From Podarcis pityusensis (lineage: Eukaryota), in assembly GCA_964106645.2 (NCBI GenBank), contig OZ067043.1: a DNA stretch of 64,000 nucleotides; one strand, given 5' to 3'. Of the stretch, positions 1 through 30,720 are shown piece by piece. The notes below the pieces were generated by a model. The model ran no database searches. It saw only the letters and a list, made by a program, of their open reading frames with translations, and was not told the origin of the DNA. The position numbers and the translations under genes were made by a program. Within the stretch, counting starts at the first letter, position 1. The number at the start of each line of letters is the position of its first letter.

Positions 1-3000
1 AAAAGTGTGCCAACTCATGCAAATAATCAGCAGCTCCGTTCGTTGTGAGCATTGCATCAATTCTGATGCCTGGCCAAGCAGGAATACTTAATATCCAAGC
101 CCCTTTCTTTCTTAGAGCAATTAAGTTAAAAGTGTGTGTGGGGGGTGTAATTAAGAAAACATATTTTTATAGTTAAAGAAATAAGGGGTTGGGGGGGGCG
201 AGATTGTGCAGCATAACATTGATTTCTATGAGTAAAGTTTTCTACTTATCCACTCCCCCTTCCCCTGTGCTCCAGAATTGCGGGCAGATGTTTGTGTGAA
301 TCTAAAGCCGAGGTTTGCTGTATGAGGATTCAGAGTGCAAGAGAGAAACAAAAATGAAGTATGCAATAGATGGAGAGGCAGCCTTTTGGATGCTAATCCT
401 TTGGCCTGCCTTAGGGATGCTGTTTCCATGCAGCCATTTCAGTGTTTCCTGGAGATACGCATCTGAGCCAAAGAGAGGTTTTGAAATCTGTGTTCAAGGC
501 TAATAATAATAGTAATGCTACTTCTACCAATAAATGTACAGAACACTCTCGTTTCGTTCACACAGACTCCTTAAAGCAGCTGGAGAAAACTGAACGTCTC
601 TTTGGTGGAGGAGAGTTCAGTTCTATCAGCTGGGTTGCATCCTGCTACTTTTATACATTAAGAACTCACAGCACTAAGTAGCACTCAATTAATGGGAAAG
701 TTCTACATTAGAATATGAGAGATCAAGGAAGTTGTAGGAAAGCAATCATATGGCTATATAAAAAGCTACAGATGTAAGTGCTGAAAAATAAAACTGACAC
801 CCAAATCCTCCCAACTCTGTTTCTAAAAGTGACTGTGTGAGACACAGTGAACAATCTTAAAAGCATTTCAGATCCTTGAGGAAAAGTGTGGATGCGTTTG
901 TATGTGTCATACAAGCACAAACACTTGCTTCTGCCTGTATTTACAAAAATAAATGCAGGATCACTTCTTTTCTTGCTCAGAGCTTTAGTTCTATGCATTT
1001 ATCTATGTTAGGGATCAAAGAAGGTGCCTCCCAAGGTTCTGCTCAAACAACATTTGTTTTCATTTACAGTGAAATCATGTGAAAGAAGTGAGAAAAATAA
1101 TACAGCATGCTTTTAAACAAGTGAAGAGAGCTCCCCTTTAGTGCCTTATAAAAGGAAACTGAGACCCCATTCACATGCAGTGTTATCCTTGGCCCTCTTC
1201 CCCACACTTGCACTGTAGGAAATGGCACACACAGAGGAAAAACTATTCACTGTAGTTTGAAAGTAATGAAGTGAATCCGGTTTTTAATACCTGCATAAAA
1301 AATGAATGCAAGACGTTCAGGAAAAGCATCTAGTGCAGGGTTGAGATTAAGCTAGGCAAGGCAAGGCATATACTAAAGCACATACAGTCACTCAATGGGC
1401 TTGGGTATTTTATTTTAGAAGGTTATGCCGCTGTTCACTTTCTTTACAATATACCGGGACTCGAATATAATGTGCTGTCTCTGCTGCATACAAATCTGTT
1501 CATTTCAGTAAGCCCAAAACAACACTGCTAGCTATTTAAGTAGAACAAATATGGTCCACCCACTTAGAGGCATTAATTTTCCCTATGAAAAACAGTGCAT
1601 GTCAAACCTCCAGGAGCATTTGGTGCAACTTTAAGGCTCATGATCATGGCTACCTTCAGGATCCTGGTTCCAGATATCTCTGAAGATCAGTTGCTGGGAA
1701 TCACAAGCAGAAGAGTGCTAATTCACTCATCTCATGCTTGTCAGCTTCTAGGTTAGAGGTATTATGGTTTCAATCTGGAATCCTTTTCTGAAAATAAAAT
1801 TTTCAGAATGTTGGGGACCGTTATCTCATCTGCACTGCAGGGAAAATCTGCAACACTGCTCAAGTCTCTGGTAAAAGTTCACACTTTGTCCTAAGCTGGC
1901 ATCAGTTATAAAGCACACAATCCTAACACTTAACAATATTTCTCATTGAAATCAATGAAAGTTACCTTTAAACAAGATGCTTCAAATCAGGCTGCAAGTG
2001 TTCCGCATGGTTACTGCGCCTATAACGCTTTATCCAGATCTCTGAAAATCCCATATTCATACAACTGTGTTTTTGTTGCAACACCCTGCATTCCGAAGAT
2101 GGCAGGGGGATTTGTTTCCTGTGGAATTAGCACTCGCTTAAAAGCCTCACCCATTTCAGCAGATGAAAGCAAGACCAGCCGTCATCCTAAGTAAAGCTAA
2201 CACAGCAACTCGGAAAGCAGCTGTTAGCAGTAGTAAGTAATCAAAACAGAGTGAAGGAAGCAGAGAGCAGCACAAACACAAAGGAACATTGTGCCCATAA
2301 GGCGATTCAGGGGTTGGCTCCAAGGACACAAGATGAAAGGGTGTGTTTTTTTAATTGACTATATAAAATGAGTGGGGAAGGGAAGCTTTCTGCTACTGTC
2401 AGCTAGCAGCATTAGGATAACAATTGTGAAAATGCTCCAGGGAGGCTCACTCAAGTTCCCAACAGACTGTGCCCACATCACCAACATCATGACCAGGACA
2501 AGATCTCATTTAAGAGAATTAGCGTTGAGAACATTCTCCTCCTTCATTCTGTCTGAGATTTTTTTTTCTTTCTGTCTGAGATTTTATCTGCTCTCTCTCT
2601 CACACACACCCCCGTGTCTTGGGCAGATAGGAAACTGAAGCCACAATCAGCATTTCTACTGTCAAGAGAAAGGTGGTGGGAGTCATCTGCTCATGCCACT
2701 AGTAAAATCAAAATAAAGCGCAGGTGCACAAATTCATGCTAAATAACTGTGTGGTCTCTCTTCAATAACTTTACCAGCCTAGCTAAGCAACTTTTGCATA
2801 CGTTCAATTGCTGGATTTTGACTCACTACCTCCTTGAAGTTCTACAGAAAAAGAGAATATGTGTAAATATTTATGGCTCTTACTGTCTCTTTCTAGTATT
2901 CTCCTCCTAGTTACTGAAGAGAATATGCTATGCACATTCCATATGTCAGCTGAATATTTGATTTATTGCATTTCCATGCTGCTTTTCATTCAAATGAATC

Positions 3001-3351
3001 TTAAAGTGGCTTACAAACAATAAATAACAATCACATAATAAAAATCACAAATGCAGCATCAATCATATAAAATAATTAACAAATCATCTCTAAAACAATT
3101 ACAATCTATAAAACACTATTAACAGAGCAGCAACTAAAGAATTAAGCTAAACATCACAATTACAGCAAAAAGCATATTATATGATTAACAATCAATACAG
3201 CATTTATAATCTATAAAACAATATTAACAACATCAACAAAACAGCAACTAAAAAAACAAGCTAAGCACTACTAGGTTCATGCAGACACTCTGCATGCCTC
3301 CATGATTCATGATCCTTCATTCTATTTAGTTCATTAAAATACACATAAAAT

Positions 3352-3521
3352 ACCCATAATGCCCGTTGTTAAGCTGGCTCAGCCAGATGCTGTGCTGGCT
3401 GGGGTCCTCAGGTTGTGGACCATGATGGAGATGGTGGGACTCTTGGGCCTACCGCCAGTGGAAACGTTGATATTGACTCTGGGTAGCCTGCCCACATTGC
3501 TCTCAGTAATCAGGGGGTTCA
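3352..3521 (-). pseudogene. OTUD1: Degenerate OTUD1-like OTU-domain fragment
   Basis: Manual translation gives NPLITESNVG / AGYPE / VNINVSTGGRPKSPTISIMVHNL / PEDPSQHSIWLSQLNNGHYG. This resembles recalled OTUD1 (SPLIEGDVG...AGYPE...VNIHLTTGGRLESPTVSTMIHYLGPEDSLRPSIWLSWLSNGHYD), with frameshifts and internal deletions. Confidence 0.8.
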
Positions 3522-3523
3522 CT

Positions 3524-3695
3524 CCTACTTGAGGAAGCCTGAGACAAGCCTATCCCTTGGGGCAGCGAATCACGACTGCACTCAGTGCAGAGGCCAACCA
3601 GGAAGTCCAGAAGTGCCTCCACGCTCAGGATGCTCATGCTGTAGCCCATCCACCAGCAGCTGCTCCAGCTTCTTCAGCTGCACCTTGGCCAACAA
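3524..3695 (-). pseudogene. CDC42BPB: Degenerate CDC42BPB (MRCK-beta) N-terminal/exon-1 fragment
   Basis: Manual translation gives LLAKVQLKKLEQLLVDGLQHE / ILSVEALLDFLVGLCTECSRDSLP / DRLVSGFLK*. Recalled CDC42BPB reads MSAKVRLKKLEQLLLDG...[34 protein letters not shown]. The ATG is lost, there are two frameshifts, and Trp has become TAG. Confidence 0.8.
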
Positions 3696-5202
3696 GTGCT
3701 AAACTTGGTTCATGTACGCAACCAGCCCTGGGTGTTGGCAGCCGCCTTTCTTGCCATCGCATTCAATCTTTGGTCTGAAGGTTCTGCTGCTATTTTATTT
3801 TATATATTAAAAAAAACTTCATTATGTAGAGCCTTCCCACTGCTCTTTGGCTATTGCTAATCTTGGACAGTACTTCCAAGTACTTCCTGATTGCAACAGG
3901 TTACAGTACTTCTGTGTCGTCGTCGTCGTCTTCTCAGCTTCCTTGGGCTATACTAGCTTCTGCTCAGGTCTCTATTCTCATTTCCTCCAGCTCCTGTTCC
4001 ACTTCCTTGTAAATTGTAAGTTGGACTGAACAGTCAGCATTTGGCTCACCTTGAATTTCATGCCTAGATTACCTTTCATTGGAAAAGTCACTTGCCTTGT
4101 TGCTGTGATCTTGCTTTCATTAACCATATTTCTAAAACCAAGAGGTAGTACAGAAATATTTATATAAATAATATGCACAATCCCTAGTCTGGAACACAAT
4201 GAGACTTTCCCTTGAGAGAAACCCTGATTCCAATTCCTTCCATATTGACACCGGGCTGGCTTTGCTAAATACTGAAAGCTGAATTTTGAGGAGTGCGGCC
4301 ACCTTATTTTTTATTTTTTATTATTGTATACCATCCTATACCCAGAGGTCTTGCTCCTATGACTTTAGCAGCAACACACAAACATATTTAAAGAGCTGAT
4401 TAAGTTCATGCCAGGAAAAGTCACACCTGCTTAACTGTTCACATCCAACTGTTTCTAAAAGCACTGGAGCAAGGCCAGTAAAAAGGTTACTGTGTCTTTC
4501 CTGCGGTCAGCCATCTCCTTCTTCCTCTGAGTGGAACTTTCCTCCAAGTTGAAAAAAATAAGTGTAGACTTGGCTTCAGCAAGGCAGTGTTTAAGTATGG
4601 CCTGCCTATGGTGGTGCCATTTTGCATACTTCACAGTATTACACAGCTCAAGTTATTGTGACACATGTACCTTTTCTGTCTATGAGTATAAACCTCATGA
4701 GAAGAAAATTTAGCAAAGGGGGGCGGCGGTGAGAGGACAATAATCTCTGCAATGTTTACAAGTGCAGTGGGGGATAAGAGACTGGTGACCCTGTGAGGCT
4801 GATCATGTTCTCAAACCAAATCCCCACAACTGATTTTCTAGTCAGCAATCTAATCACTCCCTCCACTGGCAAACTCAGATTCTGAGTTTTTGTGCAAAGT
4901 CACATGTTTTATTTACTACATCTATGCGTGCCCAGGCAAGATGTATCTTATGGGAAATAACACAGAAGTTAGATAGCTAAAATGTAGCATGGAATGTTTC
5001 TTCTAGTGTGCCACTTTTAATCACCATTTGCACAGGAGTATTTTAGAATCTGCCCAGTTTACAGTTTCAGGATTTGCTGGCCACCTCTGCAGAAATTCAT
5101 TTCTCACATGAAATGCTTAACATGCTTTTCGTGATCCTTCTGCTTCACACAGGAGCCTTTTAGCACTGTCTCCTACTGCTCTTTACCGGGGCAGTCCCTA
5201 TA

Positions 5203-5444
5203 CAGTGGTACCTCAGGTTAAGTACTTAATTCGTTCCGGAGGTCCGTTCTTAACCTGAAACTGTTCTTAACCTGAAGCACCACTTTAGCTAATGGGGCCT
5301 CCTGCTGCCACTGCGCCGCAGGAGCACGATTTCTGTTCTCATCCTGAAGCAAAGTTCTTAACCTGAAGCACTATTTCTGGGTTAGCAGAGTCTGTAACCT
5401 GAAGCGTATGTAACCTGAAGCGTATGTAACCCAAGGTACCACTG
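5203..5444. mobile_element. Non-autonomous Tc1/mariner-type MITE
   Basis: TIRs CAGTGGTACCTC...GGTACCACTG with TA on both sides; near-identical copies at 17110 and 55770. Confidence 0.85.
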
Positions 5445-7756
5445 TATTCTGGTACCTTACCTGCCCCATTTTTGCTTTCGGATAAGATGATGGAAGAAGA
5501 GCTGTGGCTCAGTGGTACGGATCTACTTTGCACGCAGAAGATCCCAGACCCAGATTGGCTTCAGTAATGTTGCCCCATCATTGCCCCACTGAAGTGAATA
5601 GAACCCAGTGGTAAGCACCAGTCAGTCTAGGGGACAGTGACATGTGTCAGGTTGCTACAATAGTAGTCTAAAATACATGTAACCCCCCTGTAGACTTCAA
5701 TGCCAAAAGTTCTGAACTGAACTTGCTTTTTTAAAAAATATGTTTTTTAAAGTGCTTATGATCTGTTTTCGGATTTCCTGATGGACTAGCAGCTGTTGAC
5801 AATGCCCTCTACTCAAGTGGCACAGTGCTTTGTGAAATAACTTACTATTAAATTATTCAGCTCTTCAAGCATCTGGCATGACCGTATGCCTGCATTTTTC
5901 TCACCCTATAAAATTAGCACACACTGCTAATTTTAAGTATGGATTGAGTCCATTTAAATCTTTAAATTTGTGGTTACAATATCTGGCATCAGTACACATT
6001 TTATTTTTATAAGGTAGTTTGCCAATTGAATATTTTTTGTCCCGGGATCTGCACTAATCCAGCTGGATCCAATTTCCTCCTTTCCCCCCAATAAATTGCA
6101 TATTTTTGTTACAACACTTGATCCAACCAACAGAACACCCTTTTCACATTATACGTTGCATTTATATAGCATGTATCAAGCATTCAAAGCCTTTAATGTG
6201 CATGAGCTCAGGAGTCCTTAAAACTTCCCAGTATAGTAGGCTAGCACTATTCTCTCTTTATTGCAGAAGGAGAGACAAAGAGAAAACAGAGGGTTCCCCT
6301 ATCACTCAGGTGAAAATTCAAACTGTAGACTTACTGCATTAGAATAGCCTTCTTAAGACATTCTGCTTATGTGCAAATAACAACATGCAAGTGGGGATGA
6401 GAATGTTAAGTTCTGATCGTCCTGTCCATATTTCCCTCTACAAGGGTAATATTCTTAAAAAGCTGTGGGGTGGTGTTTTTTTAATGCTGAAAAAATTGGA
6501 GTGCTAAATCATGTAGGAAGCTTCCATGAGTACAGGAGGCTTTCTGCTTCAGATAGCAGCTCATGGAGGCAAGAAGGATGGCAATGGCAGGAGCTTAACA
6601 CATTTGTCACTCCCGTGTTGCTTTTACAGCAAGAGTAGAACACCTGGAGGGGGATAGTAGCATGAGGCATTACTCCTCAAACTAAATGGAGTACTACTTC
6701 CACTATGTCATTCTTACAACAACGCCTTACATCTCTTTGTCTCACTTATGCATTTTACACGATTTCCCTTTTAACCTATAAAGGGAATGTCTTTAAAAGC
6801 ATCCCTTCATAAGGTATTTCTTATGACCAGCACCCATGGCAGATTGTGAGGTTAACAGTGGAAACTCAGAAGAAGCAGCCCAAAGAGGAAGCCATAAAGG
6901 AAGGTGAATTAATGGAGAAGAGACACAATACAGTAGGAAGGCCTGGTGAGCAGAACCTTGGTGCCCCAAAAGTTTGGGAATCAAATTTAGATTTTCAAAG
7001 ACTACAGAGGAGCAAGCACCATTCCAGCAGGACATCTATTTCAATTTGTACTCACTGCCATTAAAGTAAGGCCATATGTTAGCAGTCCACTGCCTGCTTT
7101 GTGTACACAAACATATGAGGCAGCAGCCAATTCCCAGAACTGAATTTACGAGGAAGGGTCAACAGCTAATGAGTTTATACATTGGTTTATGCCTAGGATT
7201 TATTTTTATTTAAGTTTTTCAGAAAAATAATAATTCCCATTTTTGTTTTTCCAAGTACAGTATATTATTTTCAGGTTTGTGTATGAGAGCAGCTGCCACT
7301 GTGCTCTTTTGGTACTGTCCCAGACCTTCTCAGGTGGCAAAGCATATCTCTTTGGCAGACAACCAATCATACTGGCTGTAAAACAGGAGGCGCTGCTAAG
7401 TGCATGCTACTGCTAGAGATAGCCAGAATGTCTGGAACGTTTCCCAAGGACATTAGACCATGGAACAACATCCCAAGGAATAGGCAAGTTATGGACAGGA
7501 GAAATAAATGAATCCTACAGTGCTTGTATTATGGAATCTCAACTTAAGCTCCATGAATAAAGCTTCTCTGTACTGTACTGCAACTGGTAGAAGAAAAAAT
7601 TAATAAAGCTCTACGCTCATTTCATTTCAGAGTACAAAGCCCCTAGAGAAATAAAAACAAATGATCCTGGTTATTTCCCAGGTAAAGTACTACTGCTGAA
7701 TGTGTGGGATTGTGTGCACACGCAAGATAAATAGATTGCAATTGGATGCAGAGGAT

Positions 7757-7766
7757 TTTATTTATT
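7757..7766 (-). terminator. Candidate poly(A) signals (two overlapping AATAAA) for the env transcript
   Basis: Plus-strand TTTATTTATT. These are the nearest canonical minus-strand AATAAA I found, ~960 nt downstream of the env stop, within an old LINE-tail-like AT tract. Confidence 0.3.
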
Positions 7767-8723
7767 TAAAAATATTTCTAGACTACTTTCTATTTAAAAA
7801 TACTGAATTGGTTTACAATATTAAAACATTAAAAAACATTTTTATATGCACACATATTAAAAATTCCAGGCTGTATGATCCAGTGTTAACGATCAGGAAA
7901 TGCAGAACCAATAGGTGTGCTTTCAATAAATGCCAGCAGCATGGATGGCTCCCATTCAACAGTCTGAATCCAAGGATTCTGTAGTGCAGGGTGGTTAGGG
8001 TTAGGCTCTGCCCTTTTCCCCAGCTCTGTGCTTGTGTTATTCATGTATAGGTCATAGCTGTGTAGAGCAAGTGCCCCGATCAAGCATAGCCAGTGTTCGA
8101 AACTCCCATTGTTCTAGGCGCCTTTTGCAACAGGGAATTTCTTTAGCTTGAGCAGTTTCTGAGCTCTGGGTACAGTACTGAGCCTAAGATTTCAGATTAA
8201 AACTGCAGGAGGACGTTTTTCTGCCTCCCCAGTTCCAGCTACTGTCTGAAGACTGGAGAAGAGACCCTCTTAAGAATATTAGGTGGGTGGGCAGGGGAAG
8301 GACTAGACTAAGTGAAAAATGAACATACGATTTTAGCTGCAGTTCATTCATTTTCAGCTTTGTATTCTTGTTATAAAAAAGCACGCCTAGACATTCTGTT
8401 GTTGCACCCATAACCTAGGATTAAGGTGCCATTTAGCTCCTAGCTTTCATATCTCAGTTTCTAAAACTGAGCATAGCCCTTCCATTTATACAGGATCTCA
8501 TGCACTGGGCTTTCCCTACTGACAACCACATACAACAGATCTTTCCTGTCTCTTCACAGCCATTCAACAGAATGTGACCGTTCTGGAGGTCAAGCATCTT
8601 GTCCTTAGCTGCTAGACCATGTCAGCTGACCATAAACAGACAAGATGGAAGCTTAAAATCACAATTGTGGTATCTGGCAACGTCCTTCCATTAAAGGAGT
8701 GTTTGCTCTAGCAAGTATTCCCA

Positions 8724-11084
8724 TCACAGGCTTCCTCTGGCGGCCTGTATCTGGTTCTCTAAATCATAAAGTCTTTGTGTTTGCCGCCTCATCCAGCTGA
8801 CCAGCAGCAACAAACTGATCACTAGCGCCACTTGAAATAATAAAATCACCACAATAGGGTGGAGAGCAATATTTAGCACTCCATTTGAACTTGGAGACCA
8901 TCCAAGAAGCACCTCCCACCAAGCGTGGTCTCCAGCAGATTTAACTGTGGCTACAATCTGGGCAATCTCCCTATTGCTATGCAGAATCTCAAGTGCAGCA
9001 TTTTCACCCATGTCTTTGATTTTCAACAATTCCTGCTTCAGGGAGGGGTGAGAAAGCAGGTTTTTCAGAGTAGAAAGGCCAAGGCCTAGAGAAATAGGCG
9101 AGATTTCTCGATACAAAGATGGGTAAGCCTTCATGTGCTGCACAGTCCAAACAGGTACCCGAAATTGGAAATCACAGCCTACAAGCACACTAATATTGCA
9201 AAAACAACGGTTAATATAAGGCAGCATAGGCTGGATAACCAGACCATTAATGATTACAAACTCACATGGCGTTCTTACACAAATACAGCCCTTCCCAGTA
9301 TACACAACAATAGAACTTTCTTCTTGGATTACATCAAAAGAGCAGTGGGAACTATTTACAAGCTGAGGAGAGAAGCATTCGTGGTGTTCTTCTAAACTGT
9401 TGTCATCACATACAAAGCCCAAGTTTTCCCTTTTCACACAACCTTGCACATTAACTGTTTGCCAGTCACCATTCCTCATCCGTGCCCACCTATTGGAGTC
9501 CCTGGAATACATGACCAAATCCTTGTCAATCTGGAATCCCAAGGGGACCACTGGATAGATTGGGATGATCTGGGTGGCTTCTACGGTTATTAAAAATAAC
9601 CGCAGCATATTCTGGGCAGAATCATAAGATGCATTTAGCAACCTCCACCAATTCTCCAAAGCTATTTCTCCTGAAGTGAGCTCTGGCCGAATTAAATTGC
9701 TCACCTCCATGGGAATGTTTCCCGCCTTGGCCTCTCGAATCATTCCCATGACTACATTCTGTGTGATTGCTTGTGCCTGTTCACATGCTAAAGCCAATGA
9801 AACATTGCTTTGGAGGGACTGGATTCCAGACACAATCAACATGCTGTCCTCTTCTAATATTGCTTCCCAGACTGGAAGCACTTTACTGATAGCTTGTGGT
9901 TGTTCTGTGAGCTGCAAGAGAGATTTGGTTAATGGAGCAGTCAGTTTCCCTATTTGTTTTGTGGAATATGAAAGTTTATTAGCCAAGACTTCTATGTTGG
10001 CTGCATCTATGAAAGAAAGACCTGCTCCTAGGGGCCCAAGCCAATCCATCAGTTCTCTTTTAACCCTTTCCCCATGATGTACTCCATCCCACATTTTAAC
10101 CCACTCCATCCAACCTCTGTGGCTGACTCCGAGAAAGGGAGCACATTGAGGTGCTCTCTGTGACACATTCAAACCCTCAAAATGAATCTGCACCTCCTTT
10201 AGTGAGGTCTGGGGGTGCATGACAATTTGTTCAGGCTGATCTAATTTCAACACATGAGACCCAATGATGGGGTTGGTCAAACGGCGAAGTGGGAGGATGT
10301 CTGTGATCAGGGGATTAAATGTAAGAATTGTTTTGTTTTGAGAGCCAAATTCTACCCGGTATGAACCTTGCTCACTTATTTCCTCTGTGATGGCAACAAA
10401 ACCATAGAATTTAAACCTAATAGAGGACATTTGTTGGTCACAGTGTGTCCCCCTGATCGGCACCACCCAGTCTGGTGGCCCCTGTTTAATTAAGTCCATT
10501 CCATTTAATTCCCACTCCTGAGATTCCCAATTAACGATTAGGCGGGTGATGTTCTTTCCAGAGGGCGAAATCAAGGACAGCTGGAACTGATCTCCAGGAA
10601 ACCTAGTGTTCTGGGTTCCAACAACAGTTCGCAGATGCAGCGGTGCACCAGGTTTCCATAAAGCAGCAGAAATGAGGGCAACATCGCACGAACCATCCTG
10701 GATGCTGCTGCTTTCGGCTGAACGAGAATCCAGATGTGTAGGCAAAGGTCGGCAAGAAACAGGAATGCGAACACTTGAACTGGCCGTCTGCATGCTGTAA
10801 CAAAAATGTCCAACTTCTCCACTGGTCTTGAGGGTGCAATTGGCTATGTCTCTCCAGTGGCAGCTGATTGAGTCTGAGACGGCATGGAACATGTAGAAGC
10901 TCTGGAACACTCCAGGGTTGGATCCATTGGCATACAATCCATGCATGCGACAAAGCAACCTTGCTTCAGCTACTCCTCCTTTCGGCAGACAGGCCCACAA
11001 CTTCACAGGGATGGCAGACACATTCGGGCTGGCAGAAACAACCATCCATCCGTTCCCCAGGAACAGCAGCAAAGGCAACAACAT
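8724..11084 (-). CDS. Intact retroviral-type envelope glycoprotein (env), 786 aa from the probable ATG; candidate domesticated ERV gene
   Basis: Single uninterrupted ORF (track 8724-11189). It contains a signal peptide MLLPLLLFLGNGWMVVSA, a furin site RVKR (10056-10067), a fusion peptide LMDWLGPLGAGLSFI, a heptad-like region and a Cys-rich ectodomain. These are followed by a Trp-rich membrane-proximal segment, a TM helix IVVILLFQVALVISLLLLVSWM and a ~21-aa tail. About 10 N-glycosylation sequons. Confidence 0.92.
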   Translation of the reverse strand: MLLPLLLFLGNGWMVVSASPNVSAIPVKLWACLPKGGVAEARLLCRMHGLYANGSNPGVFQSFYMFHAVSDSISCHWRDIANCTLKTSGEVGHFCYSMQTASSSVRIPVSCRPLPTHLDSRSAESSSIQDGSCDVALISAALWKPGAPLHLRTVVGTQNTRFPGDQFQLSLISPSGKNITRLIVNWESQEWELNGMDLIKQGPPDWVVPIRGTHCDQQMSSIRFKFYGFVAITEEISEQGSYRVEFGSQNKTILTFNPLITDILPLRRLTNPIIGSHVLKLDQPEQIVMHPQTSLKEVQIHFEGLNVSQRAPQCAPFLGVSHRGWMEWVKMWDGVHHGERVKRELMDWLGPLGAGLSFIDAANIEVLANKLSYSTKQIGKLTAPLTKSLLQLTEQPQAISKVLPVWEAILEEDSMLIVSGIQSLQSNVSLALACEQAQAITQNVVMGMIREAKAGNIPMEVSNLIRPELTSGEIALENWWRLLNASYDSAQNMLRLFLITVEATQIIPIYPVVPLGFQIDKDLVMYSRDSNRWARMRNGDWQTVNVQGCVKRENLGFVCDDNSLEEHHECFSPQLVNSSHCSFDVIQEESSIVVYTGKGCICVRTPCEFVIINGLVIQPMLPYINRCFCNISVLVGCDFQFRVPVWTVQHMKAYPSLYREISPISLGLGLSTLKNLLSHPSLKQELLKIKDMGENAALEILHSNREIAQIVATVKSAGDHAWWEVLLGWSPSSNGVLNIALHPIVVILLFQVALVISLLLLVSWMRRQTQRLYDLENQIQAARGSL

Positions 11085-11125
11085 CCTGGAAAACACCTGA
11101 GAGAAAGAGAACAGAAAAAGGATCT
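11085..11125 (-). promoter_or_regulatory. Splice acceptor feeding the env ATG
   Basis: Minus strand reads CTTTTTCTGTTCTCTTTCTCTCAG|GTGTTTTCCAGGATG: a polypyrimidine tract plus CAG (AG at 11098-11097), 12 nt before the ATG at 11084, which has A at -3. Confidence 0.8.
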
Positions 11126-11778
11126 CCGAAACCCCAGTTGCCTGGGTATGCATCACTACTGCAACTCTAGTTCTTTGATGAGGCATCATTGACAGGTGCA
11201 GAATCCATGAAAAAGAAGGGACTGCTGGTCCAAGTTAGCAATCAGAATGGCTACTAAGTGATGGACTGGATTCAGATTGAGACCAAGAATCCTGGGGGTA
11301 TATATTTCTGCTCAGAAAGCAGGTTATAACAAGGGACTAGTGGCCCACCTGGAATACATGCCAGTGGCATCAGCCAGCTAGCATATTTTACTTATTTTAC
11401 TAGCTTTCTTCCAGAATAATCTTTTCCAGATTTAGTATCCAGAAATCAGGGGATTTCTAGTGACCCAAGATTAAGAGATGCTTGGCATCCCTGAAAAGAG
11501 AAGAGAGAGAAACCCTTTTATTTAGTTGTCTACACACTTGGCATTCAACATGGAAATTTTTGGCTGTAATGCTCAACAGACAGTCAAAGAATAGCAAACC
11601 AATTTCTACTTTAATTATGAAATTTAAAAACTTTCCACTCCTCCCAACACTGGAAACTTCCACTCTGCATATTCTAGGGGAGTTCAACAATTATCAGTGT
11701 TTAAATACTTGTTTTTCTTTTCTTTTTTACTGAGATGACAGGACAATCCAGAATGTATTCTGGGCATGGGGATAGAGA

Positions 11779-14110
11779 TTTATTCTATTTATTTAACAAA
11801 TTTTAAATACTGCTTGCCTGTAAGAAAACCTCTAAGTGGTTTAAAGGTAAAGGGACCCCTGACTATTGAGTTGTGGACGACTCTGGGGTTGCGGCGCTCA
11901 TCTCGCTTTACTGGCCTCTAAGTGGTTTACATAAGTATAAAATAAAGCATTAAACCTCAGTATAAGAACAGTTAAAATAGGTATTTAAAAACATGTAGAA
12001 GACTATCATAATCAACACTAGCAAAAAAAGAGAAGATGCTTATGTAGCTTCTACATGTCTGAATAGGATTGCCGAAACAAAAATGTTTTAAGCAGGTGGT
12101 GAAAATTACAGCGAAGGTACCTGCCTGATGTCAAGCAGGCAGGGAGTTCCAAAGTATAGGTGCTGCTACACAGGAAGAACAATTTCTTGTAAGTATTGAA
12201 CAAGTATTATGTGGCACCATTAATGCTGTCAGTTCTGCAGATCAAAGCAGTTGAGGGAGCATATATGGAGTAAAGTGATCTTGCAAGTAAAATGGCCCCA
12301 AGCTGTTAAGGGTTTATATTCTAATAGTAATTCCTTGAACTTGGCCTGGTAGCAAATGGGCAACTGGTGCAGAACTCCAAGCAAGGGTGTATATGCAGTA
12401 TATGCAGACAGGGTTTCATTCCTGTCAGTAACGGTGCAGTAACTAATTGCGGCTTCTGGTTCAAGTGCATGGGAAGCCCCACAAAGACTGAACTGAAGTG
12501 CACTGCAGTAATCCCATCTTGAAGTCACCAATGCTTGAACTACTGTGGCCAAGCTATCCTGGTTCAGGACTGGCTGTTGGTGTCACCCTAGTTGCATGAA
12601 GTAAAGGGCACTTCTAGCAAATGAGGCTACCTGGGCATCCACTGGCAGAACAGGTTCCAGAAGCACCCCCAAACTGCTCCTTCAGAGAGAGCGCATCCAG
12701 GGAAATCAGTTGACTAATTGCTTGGACTAAAGAATCGCTCATCCACGGTATTTCTGTCATGCCAGGATTCAAGCTTAACATATTTTCCTTCACCCATCCT
12801 ACCACTGGATCCAGGCACCAGTCCAGGGCCCGCACCACCTGCCCTGATGCAGGTGTGATGGAGAAATAGAGTGAAGTGTCATTAGGATACTGATAACTCA
12901 TTGCCCACAAACTCCTAATGATCACTCCAAGCAGGTTCATGTAAATATTAAATATCACTGGGGAAAGAATAGTGTCATCCTGCTTCATGTAAGTGCAAAG
13001 GACCACAAAGCACTCTCCCTAAAAGCATTGTCCTGTAGGTAGGACAGGAACCATTGGAATACAATGCCCTCCAATTCCCATTTGACAGTGTCAGTCCAGA
13101 AGGATACCATTGTCAATGATACTGAAAGTCGCAAACAGAGCAAGAAGAGAAAGCAAAGTTGCACTCCCCTTGTCCCACTCTTTGAAAAGATTATCCACCA
13201 GGGCAACCAAGACGCAATCCCATGGCCAGGCCTGAACCCAGACTGAAACAGACCTAAATAATCCATGACATCCAATAATGCTTGCAGCTGCCCTACCAGA
13301 ATTCTCTTCACCACCTTCCCCAATAAAGGTAGTTGCAACTGGTTGATATTCTAGTCCAAGGGGTTCAGGCCTGGTTTCCTCAGGAGAGGTTGCACCACAG
13401 CCTCTTTCAAGGGAGTAGACACCATCCCCTTACGGACTTCAGTGCCAACCATACTCTGGCCCCAAACAGTCAAACCCCCTCTGCTAGCTTTAATAAGCCA
13501 GGAGGGACAGGGATCAAGAGGATACATGGTCAGGCATACAGCCAGGACCTTGTCTACATCAGCAGACTGCATCAGCTGAAACTGATCTCACAACACATCA
13601 TTGACTATGGCACTGGGTATTTCATCTAGAACTGCAATAACCGCAGAATTAAGGTCACTCTGAAGTCAAGTGACTTTATCCTCAAAATATATAGCCAGTT
13701 GGTCACAGTAGGTCCTCTAATGCTCCAGAGGTCCTTCCCCCTCTGTGGAAGTCAGTAACATTCAGAATGTTTGAAATAATTCCACTGGCCAGTGACTAGA
13801 GAATGCAATGCAAGCTGTGAATGAGCCTTCTTTGCAACTTGCATGCACTGCCACATGGTTGGCACAGTTACTGCACTAACCAGCGTTCAGTCAGCTTCAG
13901 AGTGAGACTTGTGTCACTTGCACTCTAGTCTTCATTCTGCTTGCTTCATAGCCCGAAGCTCTCTAGAATACCAAGGAGCTGCCCTAGCTCCACAACGCCA
14001 TAGAGGATGCTCAGGAGCGAATATGTCAACCACTCATTTCATCTCACTACTCCATAGTGAAGCATCAACAGGATTGTTCAGACTGTTTAGGAATTCCTCA
14101 AGAATTCAGG
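11779..14110 (-). mobile_element. Decayed non-LTR retrotransposon (L2/CR1 clade) ORF2 remnant
   Basis: Broken RT fragments (LDPCPSWLIK, LKEAVVQPLLRKPGL, LPLLGKVVKR...FQSGFRPGHG, LSPVIFNIYM, VVQALVTSRWDYC) with many stops and frameshifts; AT-rich 3' tail near 11780. The 5' boundary is approximate. Confidence 0.85.
11844..11914 (-). mobile_element. 5'-truncated Sauria SINE-like insertion with 15-bp TSD
   Basis: ACCTTT-type tail (plus-strand AAAGGTAAAG); perfect TSD CCTCTAAGTGGTTTA at 11829-11843 and 11915-11929. Confidence 0.8.
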
Positions 14111-14696
14111 AGCTCCTCAAGTTCCTTTAGTCTCGGAGAGTGGGCCATCCAAATAGGCCTACTTTACTACTAATTACTACTAATGTTGACAAGGGACTGA
14201 ATTGCACCCCCACCACCACCAAAAAAAGTTTGATCTATCCCTCATATCACTTGGGCTAAAGACAACATCAAGATTGTGCCCTGCCTGATGTGTTGGACCA
14301 ACAACCATTTAAAACAGTCCCATGGGGCTCTGCCACTGGGCTACAGGGCAGTTGATAGACCAGTTACATTCCCAGTTAGCCACACAACTCCAGCTATACT
14401 TTCCCCTGCCCATCACCACTGAAAGTGGGGGAACATATTCACAACTCCTTCCTACCTGCCCATCCAGACACATCCTGGCACCATAATCCAATGTCATACT
14501 ATACAGCTGGGCAATTAAGGCCACAGATAAACAAAGGTCCAGTAGTGGGCACATCCCACACTTTCAGATGGAAGGTAGTAACTTCATAACAACTCTCCTT
14601 ATGCTGTCTCTCACTCAGAGGGAACCCACCAAACCAAGTTTCTCCTCTTCCTGGCTTTCACAGGCCTGCTTTCCACATTCTCATTTTCAGTATCCT

Positions 14697-15058
14697 AGAA
14701 TCATAGAATTGTAGAGTTCGAAGGAACCCTTAGTGTCATCTAGTCCAACCCCCTGCAATGCAGGGATCATAGCTGAGAAACCCTTAACATATCCTTGACC
14801 ATCCAACCTCTGAGGTAGTCAATTCCATAATTGAATAGCTCTTACCACCAGAAAGTTCTTTCTCATGTTTAGACAGAATCTCCCTTCCTGTAATTTGAAT
14901 CCACTGCTTTGGGTCCTACCCCCGGGAGCAGCAGAAAACAAGTTTGTTCCATCTTCCATGCAACAGCCCTTCAGATATTTGAAGATGGGTATCATATCAC
15001 CTCTCAATCTTCACTTCTCCAGGCTAAACATACCCAACTCCCTCAACCATTCCTCATA
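14697..15058 (-). mobile_element. CR1 LINE 3' fragment
   Basis: ORF2 C-terminus (RGDMIPIFKYLKG...GGRTQSSGFKLQEGRF.LNMRKNFLVVRAIQLWN) and ATTCTATGATTCTA tail. Confidence 0.9.
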
Positions 15059-17109
15059 AGGCTTTGGGGATACCCTGCCACAGCTGATGTGTGAATCTGC
15101 ACACATCAGATTCTGCATCTACACTCCAGCTATGTCCACTCAACTAGCATTCAAGCAGTACCACTCACTGCAATCAGCACAAACACTCTCTAACCTGAAG
15201 GCAGAGATCTAACAGGACAAAAACTGCGTGGTCATCCTGTAGATTTGCTCTCCTGCTGATGAAGCAGCCGCCTATATAAAGATGCTTGCCAATCCCACCT
15301 ATCCCCCCCCCCCCACATCTCCATACCTTCCCCATTAACCCCTTACACCAAGAGTGGGCAAGTGTTCTGGGTCCCACCCCACATGCTAGCTTTGACAAGT
15401 AGGGAGAGCAACCCACCTGCCACGCACATGACATTATTATGGTATCACATGATTGTTCCACCCTCCTTTCAAAATCCCTTGTGGGGCTTCCAAGCACTTG
15501 CTGCTGCTGAAGGAAGCCACAGAGAAGCCTGCATTTTAAAATGCAGCCAGTGGTCCAGGGCTGCTGCAGCCTGTTCCAACTGTCCCTCCGCAGCTCACTT
15601 CCCTTCATCATACTATAATTCACAGAGCCACCTATCTGTGCCCAATCAAACTTCAGGGTGATGGCATTCTTGCATATTTATGATATGTAAGCTATATTAA
15701 ACTGTATTTATTATTTTCTCAATATAATTGCTGCTTTTTGAATAAAACCTGTAAATGGCATTACAGACATCAGGAAATTCTGATTTATTTCTGCCTTAAA
15801 TGCTTGTTTCCTTACCTTCTTAGTCGCCCTTCTCCAATCTGTTATCCTCCAAAAGCTTCAGACTACAACTTCTTTCATTCTTGACTGTTGGTCATGCTGA
15901 CAGGGGCTGATGGGAGTGAATTCAAATCACTAGAGGACACACCAGGCTGAGGAAAGCTGTTCAATGCTGTTAAACCCAGATTTACAGCAGAAGTCTAACC
16001 ATGTCTACTCAGAAATAAGTCCAATTGAGTTCAATGAAGCTTACGCTCAGGTAAGTTGGGTTAAGACTGTAGCCTTACTTTCTTTTGCAAGTGGCCCATG
16101 CTTTGTATTCTGAACGAAAGCCTATGCTGAAGTTTCATATAAGTTAATTTTATTTTTCAAGAACTTCCAGCCAGAAGCTAGTAGGTTCCTCTCCTTCTCT
16201 GTTTTCCTAGGCACAGAGAGAAACTGCCACTCACACCAACAATTCAGCTTTGTACTGGTAGCATTGCAGTCTAGGCTGCACTCATCCAAGACAGCTGGAA
16301 AAGTGTTTAGCAACCCTTTTGCCCCCTCTACAGATGCCTTGAGATTGCTGACTGAACAGTGAGAAATCTGGAACTATTAACTTTACAGAGTTGCATTTTC
16401 TCACCTCATTTGCCAGTCATATCAACACTTTCCTGTCTGGCACCCAAATACATTTTCAGTGTGCAAAACTAAAACACCTGCGGATGAACAGATGGCCCTG
16501 CAACACTAAGACTCTCAGACACTATGCCTATGAGAGAGTAAGAGTCATATCATTGTACACCAACAAACGATGGCACCAAGGCCAACAAGGCAGTGCTAAG
16601 TCATAACAAAATCTACCGTACCATCCATTCTGCCAAGGACAAAGTCTCCTGAAGAGATCAGAACCAGAGGCTTCAGAGCAAGTTCCAAGGGCATCATGGC
16701 AGGTTCCCTTATCCCTGGAAAAGGTTCCAGTTTAACAACAACATGGGTAATAAAATAAGATGAAAACACTTATTAAAATTCCTGCCTCTTAAAATCTTAA
16801 ATCTAACCACTGGAAGTCAACCCCCAAAAGGGTGATTTCCCAATGCTTCTCAAAAGTGCTGAAGCTTGATCAATCTCAAAATAACAGAACTTCCAAATTA
16901 ATGTTGCAGCCACCAAGCATACCTTGCTTCCAAACAATCAAGAGGGCCTTCTTGGCTGATCTAAGATGTATCTTTATATTTTAAGATTACAGAAAATGTG
17001 AGGAGTCGTATATGTCTACTTATTTCAGAGTGAAGAAAGGAGAGAATCTCGAAAAGGTTAACTTCAGGCAGAGGTGCCTCCAACAATAATTTGTCAGACT
17101 TTAAGAATA

Positions 17110-17335
17110 CAGTGGTACCTCAGGTTAAGAACTTAATTTGTTCCGGAGGTCTGTTCTTAACCTGAAACTGTTCTTAACCTGAAGCACCACTTTAGCTAAT
17201 GGGGCCTCCTACTGCCGCTGTGCCGCCAGAGCACGATTTCTGTTCTCATCCTGAAGCAAAGTTCTTAACCCGAGGTACTATTTCTGGGTTAGCGGAGTCT
17301 GTAACCTGAAGCGTATGTAACCTGAGGTAACACTG
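17110..17335. mobile_element. Tc1/mariner-type MITE (same family as 5203)
   Basis: Same TIRs and internal sequence, TA flanks. Confidence 0.85.
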
Positions 17336-18208
17336 TAGTGGCCATTTTTTCACAAGCGTGAATTTAGAACTAATCCAGAATAACAAAACAAGTGAGGATT
17401 AGAATCTAAACCACACTTTACAGAGCAGTTGCTAGAAACTCCATCAGTAAAGAGGAAAAACAAGACAATGTCATAGGAACGTATTTTTTTCACAAGGAAG
17501 TTCAAAGCTCTGTGTAGAAACTTCTCTATGAGTCATTCATGAAGAAGGAAGAAAGGCTTTCTATAGAAATCTAGAGATTTTTCCTGTGGAAATTTTAGCA
17601 TGCTTACACCTAGGGGAATTTTTTTATGGTGAATACTTTAAATATATCTATATATATAAAATAAAGAAATGCATATTCAAGCCAACAATTCAAAAATTGC
17701 TCTTCTGGTAATAAGGGGTTTGGGGAGTTCCTTCATGCAACAAAGTGGGTTTGATGAAAAACCCCTCAAGTCTGGAGCATTTAATTGCAGTATTACAAAA
17801 GACAGGTCCAAACCTCCTCCAATCAGAGCGGTCTATAAATCTTGTCTCTTCAGAAGTAAGATTACTTTAGATAACACTGTGAGGATTAAAAACTGAGCAA
17901 ACAACAGGAGACAATTCTGTTAATGATTTTCACAGGGATTAGTAAGGCATAATAGCTCTCCCACATTTCTCAGGGCAGTGTATTTTTTTCTCCCCTCCCC
18001 GTCCCAAAAAAGACATCAATCACTGTTACTGGTTTTTGAGTCCAAAACAAGAAATATGTTGGAATTGATGGATTGTCAAAAGGTATTAAGAAAGAGTTGC
18101 CAAGAAAAGCGACTTCACCTGTCATAAAAGCGAACACAGAATGAAGTGGCAGCAAAAATGGCAGGATCTCACTAGCCTGTACTTGTCTTCAGAAATCTCA
18201 GATTTTTC

Positions 18209-18211
<3 letters not shown>

Positions 18212-18244
<33 letters not shown>
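18212..18244. repeat. (TA)n microsatellite
   Basis: Direct reading. Confidence 0.95.
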
Positions 18245-18246
<2 letters not shown>

Positions 18247-21155: not shown

Positions 21156-21189
21156 CCGCCAGGAGAATTCAGCAGACTGCCTGCAGCAT
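21156..21189 (-). other. Possible alternative non-coding exon
   Basis: Strong donor GCGG|GTGAGT at 21155 and a weaker acceptor CTCCTTTCAG at 21190. It could instead be the 3' end of an alternative first exon. Confidence 0.3.

Positions 21190-21933: not shown

Positions 21934-21935
<2 letters not shown>

Positions 21936-21999
<64 letters not shown>
21936..21999. repeat. Compound (CA)n(GA)n microsatellite
   Basis: Direct reading. Confidence 0.95.

Positions 22000-22002
<3 letters not shown>

Positions 22003-22445: not shown

Positions 22446-22452
<7 letters not shown>

Positions 22453-22493
<41 letters not shown>
22453..22493. repeat. (CA)n microsatellite
   Basis: Direct reading. Confidence 0.95.
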
Positions 22494-22495
<2 letters not shown>

Positions 22496-25722: not shown

Positions 25723-25813
25723 CTCTTTTGACCAAATTTCTCCGTTCACCTGTTGGTGAAAGCCAACCTGTCGTTACCATGTCAGCATGAAGGAAGTCCC
25801 AGGTGGAAAGAAA
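25723..25813 (-). other. PPARD: Non-coding 5' UTR exon 2 of the CpG-island gene (probably PPARD)
   Basis: Acceptor TTTTGCTCTCTTGCAG| and donor GAG|GTAAC define a 91-nt exon. It contains GGCTTTCACCAACAGGTGAA, resembling recalled human PPARD exon 2 (GGCTTCTGCTCACCAACAGATGAA). Confidence 0.65.
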
Positions 25814-29699: not shown

Positions 29700-30720
29700 T
29701 GCAACGCCATGGGGCCCGATCCTCCACAGCATGCTACAAGCACGCCCGATCCGCCACTCGCTTTGGTGGGTGGGGGGGTGGATTTTGGATAACGGGGGTT
29801 TGTTGTTGGGGGCGAGTTGCTGAGGGAGCAGCATAACCTAGGACTGGGCTGGAGGGAAGGAAAAGCTAAGACGCAGGTTTTCCTTATTTGTTTTCTTCCC
29901 CCCTCCTTCCAAGAGGGGTGGGGGACGGGAGGAAGGGGCAAGCGAGCACCAGCTGTCCTGTGCCGTGTGCCTCCATCCTTCCCCCCAAGCCTCGGAGGGT
30001 GAAAGGGGGTTGCTGGTGTCACCGGGCAAGGCACGCAGCCAGGCAACGGGGCCAAGCTCAGCTGCAGCTGACCCGGAGCAGCCGCCACAGGGCACCCCGG
30101 AGGCGGACAGGCCTCGGCAGATACCCCAGGGCACCGACAACCGCCCCCCCCAAGCTCCCGTCTCGCGAGGCGCCACACAGAACTGCCCCCGTCCCTTCTC
30201 CGCCCTACAAACGCCGCCCGCTTCCCCCGCCACCTCACCTGCCGGCCGCGAAGGGCGCGCGCTCCCCGGCCGCCCTCGGCGCAGAACTTTTGTCATGAGA
30301 AACCCCAACCCGGCCCGACAACCACAGCAACCTCTCTCTTCTTTTTTTTTTTTTTTTTTGTCCCCGCCCACCCTCTCGCTCGCGTCACGCGCGCTGGGCC
30401 TGGCGTCACCGCGCATCGCCACCCCCGTTGGCCAGTCAGAGGCGCGAGGGAGGTATTAGCATATCGCCACGACGACGGCCCAAGCCCGTTCCCGCCCCCC
30501 TGAGGAGAGAAGGTGCTCTCTCGTCAGCAAAGGAGGCCAACCCTGTGGCTGGCTACCTCCTTCCCCGGTGCTCGTCGAGTGGCAGCGGGTTCTTCCGTGG
30601 AAGCGGCCGTCCGAGGGCGGAGAGTCCCTCCAGCGGGAGCGAGAAGTGGACGCCCGTCTCCGATATCGGACAGGCGGGTGCAAACAGGGCCAGGGACTTT
30701 CTGCATCTGGTCGCGGTGCA
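29700..30720. promoter_or_regulatory. PPARD: CpG-island promoter (probably PPARD), transcribing leftward
   Basis: The clearest GC- and CpG-dense non-coding segment in the window. GC boxes (CCCGCCC at ~30363 and ~30491) and CGTCA half-CRE sites (~30382, ~30403). It lies ~8 kb downstream of the DEF6 stop, matching the DEF6-PPARD tandem order known in human. Confidence 0.75.
30239..30340 (-). other. PPARD: Non-coding exon 1 (probably PPARD); 5' end approximate
   Basis: Consensus donor GCAG|GTGAGG at 30238. TGGGGTTTCTCATGACAAAAGTTCTG resembles recalled human PPARD exon 1 (TGGGGATTAATGGGAAAAGTTTTG). Confidence 0.65.

Follow-up and report, generated by a model that had tools for sequence, protein, structure and literature searches.

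We analysed a 64,000-nucleotide window (the whole stretch of DNA under study) from Podarcis pityusensis. It holds an intact retroviral envelope (env) open reading frame (ORF) in the 5'-UTR intron of PPARD, on the same strand as that gene and between non-coding exon 2 and the exon where coding starts. The features of the locus are as follows.

30239..30420, minus strand: PPARD non-coding exon 1, within a CpG island; its 5' end is placed approximately (CpG observed/expected 0.76 in 30001-31000; spliced to exon 2 at a GT-AG joint in 4 of 4 RNA runs)
25723..25813, minus strand: PPARD non-coding exon 2 (RNA joint with exon 1)
11085..11615, minus strand: transcribed stretch upstream of the ORF, a retained intron or an alternative 5' end (one 3235-nt contig, run X4)
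11097..11122, minus strand: splice acceptor with polypyrimidine tract, 12 nt ahead of the ATG (from sequence; the Podarcis raffonei model P0014 turns into env here)
8724..11084, minus strand: intact env ORF of 786 codons and a stop; its translation is uninterrupted
11028..11084, minus strand: probable signal peptide, residues 1-19, by hydropathy alone (Kyte-Doolittle 1.64)
10302..10697, minus strand: Ig-like beta-sandwich domain, residues 130-261 (many beta-sandwich matches, e.g., 6xi3, Z 7.1, rmsd 3.2, 88 aligned)
8925..10286, minus strand: F-type (class Ib) fusion core, residues 267-720, from structure matches of the predicted model; the most conserved part
10056..10067, minus strand: furin site RVKR, residues 340-343 (R-x-K-R in 22 of 22 aligned sequences)
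9984..10055, minus strand: probable fusion peptide, approximately residues 344-367, glycine-rich and weakly hydrophobic, directly after the furin site (13 of 24 columns invariant)
9468..9490, minus strand: two internal splice donors, GT at 9489-9488 and 9469-9468, matching the exit points of short isoforms of Elgaria, Crotalus and Vipera
8799..8855, minus strand: transmembrane anchor with its core at residues 744-762 and a short cytoplasmic tail after it (hydropathy 3.23; pLDDT 79-85)
8091..8469, no strand assigned: hAT-like MITE past the env stop codon, a repeat 250 bp beyond it (14-nt terminal inverted repeats and a flanking direct repeat)

The initial annotation had described 786 uninterrupted codons with every landmark of a class I fusion protein. 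Translation bore out the length, giving 786 residues and a stop. The stop-to-stop frame around the ORF spans 836 codons, and 20 shuffles of the whole window yielded frames of at most 241. The RVKR motif, the transmembrane peak, the hydrophobic N-terminus and long helices (residues 399-453 and 670-718 of the predicted model) are present. So is the fusion peptide, but it is a softer landmark than claimed because it is weakly hydrophobic, with a best 19-mer hydropathy of 1.18 and acidic residues at its start. This segment aligns with the equivalent segment of Ovex1 ORF3. The protein carries 10 N-glycosylation sequons and 20 cysteines, and its Ig-like domain may form, with residues 20-129, a putative receptor-binding module.

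We searched the surroundings for the rest of a provirus. No match to gag, protease, reverse transcriptase, RNase H or integrase was found among 96 flanking ORFs (≥58 aa in 1-8723; ≥62 aa in 11085-25700), a scan that is insensitive to decayed remnants, since it missed decayed LINE pieces. LINE-like pieces at 12232-13587 are spread over several short frames. No polypurine tract was detected in the 1.3 kb past the env stop, where the longest purine run is 11 nt. Both candidate LTRs proved to be MITEs. The pair at 5200-5418 and 17107-17325 (94.5%), the sole long repeat common to both flanks, is a high-copy, TA-flanked element with terminal inverted repeats, and the repeat at 8091-8469 is hAT-like, with 39 of its 40 scored matches being other copies at 87-90%. 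Env itself is single-copy in the genome (1 of 1 DNA match); the next protein match has 32% identity and 4 stops. Beside three weak paralogous matches elsewhere in the Podarcis genome, none of 99 ORFs matched gag or pol, and one intact LINE lies there. The description of env as solitary thus stood, and what would mark an intact or recent provirus (gag, pol, paired LTRs, many near-identical copies) was not found at the locus.

We assessed the class of the protein by sequence and by predicted structure. The Pfam search of the ORF returned no env family at E-values up to 1 and two chance matches (E 0.16-0.17), and searches of the PDB by sequence and by profile gave 0 matches. A single-sequence AlphaFold model had a pLDDT of 37 and was unusable; the model used here is of moderate quality (pLDDT 69, pTM 0.50). 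With Foldseek, all 39 PDB matches listed were paramyxovirus or pneumovirus F proteins, the best with an E-value of 9e-10, at low TM-scores to solved F proteins (0.15-0.25 by query). The top six VIA matches were F or foamy virus Env structures (Z 7.3-8.0, rmsd 9-24), led by 3maw_A with Z 8.0, a range that the tool itself calls common, and rmsd 16.3 over 335 aligned residues. In BFVD the best named viral match was an epsilonretrovirus Env (E 1.5e-10), and insect-virus F proteins matched too. The best ESM Atlas match scored 0.88, below 0.9, and such matches serve only as leads. On this modelling, env is predicted to have an F-type (class Ib) fold of the paramyxovirus-F and foamy-Env type.

The marks of gamma-type envelopes were missing. 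A motif check detected neither CXXC, expected in SU, nor CX6CC, expected in TM, and therefore env is not syncytin-like; no env profile with an immunosuppressive domain matched. The comparators first proposed (syncytins, Mab1 and percomORF) are orthoretroviral envelopes and proved to be the wrong ones. The closest described relative is chicken Ovex1 ORF3 (LOC422926, 873 aa; PMC2717909), with 35% identity over 511 aa (E 2e-105). Because the homology extends over the fusion core, we place env in an Ovex1-ORF3-like envelope family.

Env is transcribed in the sense direction. RNA mapping covered 10400-30399, i.e., the 5' third of env, and raw stranded reads over env run in the PPARD direction at low mean depth (0.42 and 0.45). 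Contig depth over env was 15.3, compared with 3.0-5.6 for the other listed intron contigs of the same run. The RNA-seq check suggested at the outset gave a contig above intron background in one run and a small number of sense-strand raw reads in another. The 3235-nt contig of run X4 crosses the acceptor unspliced from 11615, and a joint between exon 2 and env was absent among the 15 joints listed, of 97, over 10400-30399. An internal promoter or intron retention may therefore dominate.

Database gene models of other species supply the splicing. The Varanus model P0051 begins with a translation of PPARD exon 2 (17 of 18 residues, E 1e-13), continues into env and ends in LEGTA. Elgaria X3 ends in LEGTA as well, and the PPARD exon 3 acceptor in the window reads LAGTA-stop in that frame. 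In two anguimorphs, Varanus and Elgaria, env is joined to PPARD exons according to these models. Gene models also give isoforms that lack the anchor, in Elgaria (555 aa), Crotalus tigris (551 aa) and Vipera (590 aa); a search of the window and the 20 kb beyond it did not recover the downstream exon of the short snake forms. The initial placement of env in a host intron is correct, the intron being that in the 5'-UTR of PPARD, but it is not a mere passenger there, since gene models of other species splice it to PPARD exons. We consider it very likely that env is part of the PPARD transcription unit.

Five clusters, with 37 of their 43 members listed, hold env orthologues at 79-99% identity; the listed members come from 26 species of lacertoids, anguimorphs, iguanians and snakes. 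In 20 of the 26 species the database name is "PPARD isoform" (X1/X2). Env and DEF6 lie on the same contig in all 7 species where both are given, and in Phrynocephalus they bear adjacent locus tags (JRQ81_015156 for DEF6, JRQ81_015157 for env). A quick tree of 34 rows, which left out rows <300 aa and one N-terminal fragment, resolved four groups with support, namely the lacertoids, the anguimorphs, the iguanians and the snakes. The proposed check for an orthologous ORF at the DEF6-PPARD locus thus found syntenic orthologues in lizards and snakes, which widens the original framing around one lizard. Env was present in the PPARD intron before lacertoids split from iguanians, anguimorphs and snakes, and the capture therefore predates a divergence of ~150-190 My. 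Its minimum age, ~150 My, is older than that of percomORF.

More distant relatives exist. Those of the turtle Pelodiscus and of alligator are 81% identical to each other. The alligator sequence was rejected as an orthologue: it lies on an 83.6-Mb contig and alligator DEF6 on a 46.1-Mb contig (assuming one assembly). This sister envelope may represent a second, still older capture. Some birds carry related envelopes in more than one copy (7 named Balearica/Grus members), and decayed pieces of related envelopes are present in the Podarcis genome.

We estimated constraint on the coding sequence. In one species pair, the first 228 codons hold 15 differences, 12 synonymous and 3 non-synonymous, giving a pN/pS of 0.076 (p = 6e-6), far from the value near 1 that had been named as evidence against domestication. 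Cysteine positions are invariant (20 of 20 in 22 aligned sequences). The fusion core is 82-90% identical to 7 toxicoferans. Set against the N-terminal domains it is the better conserved, at 89-90% compared with 72-77%. The 530 nt upstream of the ORF also look constrained, with 12-13 differences in 531 nt against a pS of 0.075. Judged from these alignments, env is under strong purifying selection. An intact retroviral ORF at a single orthologous locus, under purifying selection and transcribed, is what is expected of a domesticated env, and we regard env as almost certainly a host gene. The proposal that selection keeps it as such is well supported by the pN/pS value, the single genomic copy (the outcome of the suggested copy-number check), the syntenic orthologues and the sense transcription.

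What the host uses it for is a more graded matter. Env is a candidate fusogen that is fairly likely to be still fusion-active, and our best explanation, a domesticated fusogen of the F-type that is transcribed as part of the PPARD unit, has in our judgement somewhat better than an even chance. An Ovex1-ORF3-like env lies in sense in the PPARD intron, its provirus since lost. It would be used as an alternative exon (exon 1 - exon 2 - env), as the gene models partly indicate, part of the transcripts starting 0.5 kb or more upstream and staying unspliced, as the RNA contig suggests, and others probably leaving env at the internal donors for PPARD exon 3, which would give the short anchor-less form. 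The full-length product would be a type I membrane glycoprotein that furin cleaves after R343. Its N-terminal and Ig-like domains may bind a receptor on a neighbouring cell, upon which the F-type core would refold and the membranes merge. Such a cell-cell fusogen could serve a process common to egg-laying and live-bearing squamates; many of the species that keep env are egg-laying.

The same features can be read otherwise. If env were a non-fusogenic surface or shed protein, acting in adhesion, as a ligand or in signalling, its fold would be kept for trimer stability and receptor binding; HEMO is an old env with a proposed non-fusogenic role. The weakly hydrophobic fusion peptide with its acidic residues, the Ig-like domain and the anchor-less isoforms are consistent with this possibility. 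However, the furin motif kept in all 22 sequences, the invariant fusion-peptide columns and the heptad regions, which are the most conserved parts, speak against it, and we consider it possible but unlikely. We give about as little credence to an antiviral restriction factor, in which the domesticated Env, especially the short anchor-less isoform, would occupy the receptor of related retroviruses and block their entry. The short isoforms modelled in Elgaria, Crotalus tigris and Vipera, with both donors present in the window, fit this proposal, as do the multi-copy bird envelopes and the decayed Podarcis pieces, from which we conclude that the virus family circulated in sauropsids. Yet the tightest constraint falls on the fusion core, the furin site and the anchor and not on the receptor-binding part, a pattern that is not required if env only blocks a receptor; stable retention for >150 My would be long for an arms-race gene; and the short isoforms stop just inside the downstream exon and may be decay targets.

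A role as immune modulator through a CKS-17-type immunosuppressive domain, as in gamma-type envelopes, draws on general precedent (PMC12129022) but is very improbable given that CX6CC, CXXC and any Pfam env family are absent and that Ovex1 ORF3 also lacks CKS17 (PMC2717909). Least credible is that env is the remnant of a provirus, either recent or neutral, or that its ORF is kept for an RNA-level effect as a decoy exon lowering PPARD output. As an alternative terminal exon env would compete with PPARD for transcripts, and its upstream 530 nt look constrained, but RNA roles leave protein-level purifying selection, invariant cysteines and full-length ORFs in four squamate groups unexplained. The single copy without LTR also speaks against this reading, which as a sole explanation is largely refuted.

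Returning to the domesticated fusogen, these squamates probably have a very old fusion protein at the cell surface that has gone unnoticed. A more ambitious version remains tentative, and we would not bet on it as a whole: that this undescribed, fusion-active host protein is the oldest intact retroviral env dated (>150 My), belongs with the paramyxovirus-F-like proteins and not with the syncytins, was captured by linking up with the PPARD promoter and drives a step of cell fusion that lizards and snakes share, in a tissue rich in PPAR-delta. The syncytial beta-layer of the shedding epidermis and muscle are candidate tissues. Our literature search found no description of the locus, and there is a modest chance that a survey of 177 co-option events lists it.

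If the reading is right, the record for an intact captured retroviral env would move from ~110 My (percomORF, as published) to 150-190 My, and the set of host-domesticated proteins would gain a paramyxovirus-F/foamy-like class of fusogen. It would also add a route of domestication by which env joins a metabolic transcription-factor gene as one of its alternative exons, and offer one testable candidate for cell fusion among reptiles, most of which lack a placenta. Homology screens seeded with syncytins would miss an F-type env, as the empty Pfam and PDB sequence searches illustrate. Because of its database name in 20 species, pipelines that take the longest isoform compare an envelope as PPAR-delta.

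We compared env with known systems. Lyosin, an alternative exon of MYL4 (PMC12129022), is likewise an ancient mobile-element ORF serving as a host-gene isoform and carried in RefSeq under the host name; it derives from LINE-1 ORF1p and not from an env, and the full-length env product contains no PPARD protein sequence. Syncytins, including Mabuya syncytin-Mab1, are also captured single envelopes, conserved, with furin site and anchor intact. They are orthoretroviral, whereas env lacks CXXC/CX6CC, and they are defined by placental expression and fusion (expression at the materno-fetal interface and cell-cell fusion activity; PMC12813294). The percomORF of spiny-rayed fishes resembles env in being very old, intact and host-conserved, and was found to be fusogenic in a 2026 study (PMC12813294), but it is a gamma-type orthoretroviral env of at least 110 My (bioRxiv 2021.11.05.467493) and belongs to a different fold class.

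The class Ib proteins (paramyxovirus and pneumovirus F, foamy virus Env, PMC11468914, and the Env of lokiretroviruses, PMC7947760) are the structural counterparts, the predicted core at residues 267-720 matching F and foamy Env structures. Lokiretroviruses have a reverse transcriptase sister to that of retroviruses and an F-like Env (PMC7947760). Env differs in carrying an Ig-like module N-terminal to the core, in being a host gene rather than viral and in having no sequence-level match to solved structures. Ovex1 ORF3 (described in 2009 by Carre-Eusebe et al.) is nearest in sequence: it is under purifying selection (dN/dS 0.16), lacks CX6CC and starts 11 bp after a splice acceptor, compared with 12 nt here (PMC2717909). 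Gonad expression is known for Ovex1. It is not an orthologue, as Ovex1 lies at CD8-SMYD1 in birds and env in PPARD beside DEF6. Ovex1 keeps gag-pol and its own promoter, whereas no gag-pol was found for env, and ORF3 is reported without a signal peptide, whereas env has a hydrophobic N-terminus (PMC2717909). The first 270 residues of the two show no similarity. If our reading holds, it points to the same F-type fold in Ovex1 ORF3, for which the 2009 work had not settled whether it is an envelope.

The retroviral envelope-like ORF (env; window:8724-11084, minus strand) translates into 786 residues and a stop, which confirms the uninterrupted frame of the initial annotation. The open frame around it spans 836 codons, whereas the longest open frame in 20 shuffles of the window did not exceed 241 codons; the ORF is real. 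That annotation had also claimed every class I fusion-protein landmark. The hydrophobic N-terminus (hydropathy), an RVKR furin motif (residues 340-343) and a strong membrane anchor from residue 744 are present, but the fusion peptide stands less well, as the stretch following the furin site is glycine-rich and weakly hydrophobic (best 19-mer 1.18). The protein has 20 cysteines and 10 glycosylation sequons. Its ATG follows a clean splice acceptor at a distance of 12 nt.

Env lies in sense within the second 5'-UTR intron of PPARD because exons 1 and 2 are upstream, and the first coding exon and other nuclear-receptor exons are 14-25 kb past the env stop, all on the same strand. The GT-AG joint between exons 1 and 2 was present in 4/4 RNA runs. 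We take the host gene to be PPARD from its sequence and also from the database names of env orthologues. The features are as follows.

~38500-61100, minus strand: DEF6 exons
30001-31000: CpG island containing a non-coding exon
donor at 30239, minus strand: PPARD non-coding exon 1, spliced to exon 2
25813-25723, minus strand: PPARD non-coding exon 2
5200-5447 and 17108-17337: a TA-flanked MITE in two copies, with TA ends and terminal inverted repeats
12232-13587, 14843-15061 and 47938-48177, minus strand: decayed LINE RT-like pieces and CR1-like fragments
near 11700, upstream of env: TATA-like TATTTAAA
9468-9490, minus strand: two internal splice donors
8091-8469, just past the env stop: hAT-like MITE (inverted repeats, flanking duplication)
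G000:C6:35516086-35516612 (L005/L006) and G000:C12:12490418-12491017 (L002): decayed env relatives elsewhere in the Podarcis genome

Env is single copy. The protein retrieved itself and eight weak matches from the 1.5-Gb genome (the best at 32% identity with four stops), and DNA 8500-11700 gave 1 match of 1 candidate. No gag or pol families were found in the ORFs scanned near the decayed relatives. The reported lack of gag, pol and paired LTRs in the flanks was upheld: gag/pol families matched 0 of 96 flanking ORFs, in a scan that also missed decayed LINE pieces and is therefore blind to old proviral remnants. The repeats at 5200-5418 and 17107-17325 (94.5% identical) were rejected as an LTR pair because they carry terminal inverted repeats and TA ends and have thousands of genomic candidates, and an LTR at 8091-8469 was rejected given its 14-nt inverted repeats, flanking duplication and other copies at 87-90%. 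Both are young DNA-transposon MITEs; their family labels (e.g. hAT-like) and those of the LINE/CR1 pieces are our presumptive assignments. The LINE RT-like pieces are decayed, as had been described. The env gene model of Podarcis raffonei has a CR1-like piece as its 5' extension. An apparently intact LINE lies at another genomic locus (L011:3-3235, minus strand); it carries an ORF of 343 aa and another, for an endonuclease-RT, of at least 731 aa.

The env protein search returned five orthologue clusters at 79-99% identity. The 37 members listed (out of 43) come from 26 species, comprising 6 lacertoids (including the amphisbaenian Rhineura), 2 anguimorphs, 5 iguanians and 13 snakes; two Crotalus species are represented among them by shorter forms only. 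Env and DEF6 share a contig in 7/7 species with both given, and their locus tags are adjacent in Phrynocephalus, which bears out an orthologous ORF at DEF6-PPARD. The four groups were each supported within one clade of a quick tree (34 rows). Orthology, synteny and tree together place the insertion before the lacertoid/toxicoferan split, which is bracketed by the ages of crown Lacertoidea, 150 My (116-191), and crown Squamata, 193 My (176-213), in the accessible part of Jones et al. 2013 (PMC4016551, Table 3). DEF6 is on record for four geckos and Hemicordylus; no env relative named from these was among the matches listed (best 7995 candidates scored), where the 61% relatives P0007 and P0042 carry no species name.

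P0007 and P0042 are full-length Logan proteins, sister to the squamate clade; they and P0009 (full-length Logan, 42% identity) all have a signal-like start, furin motif and anchor. The truncated database proteins P0008 (Pelodiscus K7EZ49) and P0043 (Alligator LOC109283277) share 81% identity with each other and 56-60% with env. We treat them as a separate capture because the alligator copy and DEF6 are on different contigs, and there may have been a second ancient capture in turtles and archosaurs. In Rhineura, further partial relatives (P0045, 49%; P0059, 36%) occur on other contigs.

In 20 squamates the database name is 'peroxisome proliferator-activated receptor delta isoform': these RefSeq/UniRef 'PPARD isoform X1/X2' entries are env, longer than PPAR-delta and thus a trap for longest-isoform pipelines. 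One Varanus env model is misnamed ABCB8.

The proposed purifying selection is supported by one pairwise comparison and by conservation. Across codons 1-228, an RNA contig of a related species has 12 synonymous and 3 non-synonymous differences (pN/pS 0.076, p = 6e-6; 27 of the contig's 28 differences listed). R-x-K-R is present in 22/22 aligned sequences, drawn from the window and 21 of the 26 species; among them 20/20 cysteines are invariant and 7/10 sequons are always retained. Against seven toxicoferans, identity falls from 89-90% over the heptad and core regions to 72-77% over the N-terminal domains and 53% over the tail; Rhineura and five toxicoferans share 82-85% in env and 90-91% in DEF6.

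Gene models link env to the PPARD transcription unit along three lines: the database names, the Varanus start and the protein ends. The Varanus database model begins with PPARD exon 2 translation (17/18 residues, E 1e-13) and continues into env. It ends in LEGTA, as does the Elgaria isoform X3 database model; in the matching frame, the PPARD exon 3 acceptor of the window gives LAGTA followed by a stop. RNA mapping over 10400-30399 (two raw runs and two contig sets, related species) did not include the exon 2-env joint among the 15 joints listed of 97. A 3235-nt contig (depth 15.3) runs unspliced from 11615 across the acceptor into env. Among the contigs listed, the others from introns have depths of 3.0-5.6, and the PPARD exon joint has 29. 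The few env reads of a stranded bulk run are in the PPARD direction (0.42 vs 0); env is therefore transcribed in sense, and its transcripts may be spliced, intron-retaining or started internally. The transcribed stretch 11085-11615, upstream of env, has 12-13/531 differences (2.3%) from the related species versus 7.5% at synonymous sites, and may be a regulatory region under constraint.

Pfam and PDB sequence searches were blank and the protein has neither CXXC nor CX6CC, so we rejected a gamma-type envelope. A profile-free HMMER search found 273 relatives (E ≤ 0.001), including birds, turtles and a frog. Relatives in the crane Balearica (P0046 cluster) and Strix owls (P0048 cluster), both with neighbouring multiple copies, and in the frog Gastrophryne (P0100) make the family wider than reptiles. 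The best described is chicken LOC422926 (P0044; 35% over 511 residues), which the accessible part of PMC2717909 identifies as Ovex1 ORF3. Ovex1 has gag-pol there, supporting a retroviral origin of env, whereas the env locus has no gag/pol matches in its flanking ORFs.

Three structure searches with an AlphaFold model (109-sequence alignment, pLDDT 69) agree on a predicted core fold of paramyxovirus-F/foamy-Env type, class Ib. Foldseek against the PDB listed paramyxo-/pneumovirus F in 39/39 rows (best E 9e-10, low TM-scores), and BFVD matches were walleye epsilonretrovirus Env, insect-virus F proteins and foamy Env. With an independent aligner, foamy Env and five F proteins came first (Z 7.3-8.0, by itself middling; rmsd 9-24; 262-335 aligned), and an Ig-like domain was placed at residues 130-261 of the model. 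Class Ib is that of Fernandez et al. 2024 (PMC11468914) and includes lokiretrovirus Env (PMC7947760), as far as the accessible text goes. The homology across the core makes the F-type fold probable for Ovex1 ORF3 too; if so, this would settle the doubt over its envelope identity voiced in the available part of PMC2717909.

The best-supported reading, which we favour with some reserve, is that env would be a membrane-anchored F-type fusogen, activated by furin and used in cell-cell fusion. The strongest constraint falls on parts needed by fusion alone. The weak fusion peptide would suit a non-fusogenic surface or shed protein, which we rate as rather unlikely. Similarly improbable, if slightly more so, is a restriction factor that blocks a receptor; consistent with it are anchor-less isoforms of 551-590 aa from the internal donors in an anguid and two vipers, whose downstream exon in snakes was not found in the window. 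Immunosuppression is very improbable, and RNA-only roles still more so. Syncytins are defined by placental expression and demonstrated fusion; env is retained in many egg-laying squamates, and the predicted fusogen should not be called a syncytin.

Co-opted envelopes are a known kind. We found no published description of a PPARD-intron env in the accessible texts, and Wang and Han 2020 may list the locus. It is absent from the available portions of PMC12129022, PMC12813294, PMC13709493, PMC8922424, PMC11521997, PMC7947760, PMC11468914, PMC4016551, PMC2717909 and bioRxiv 2021.11.05.467493, 2023.10.26.564294 and 2026.05.06.723177. Env stands out among them by its age beyond dated examples, its other fold class and its wrongly named place inside a host transcription unit. 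PercomORF is dated to at least 110 My in the accessible part of bioRxiv 2021.11.05.467493; env is older and of another predicted fold class. Unlike the gamma-type syncytin-1 and percomORF, env is without CXXC and CX6CC, and its predicted fold is like that of paramyxo-/pneumovirus F and foamy Env.
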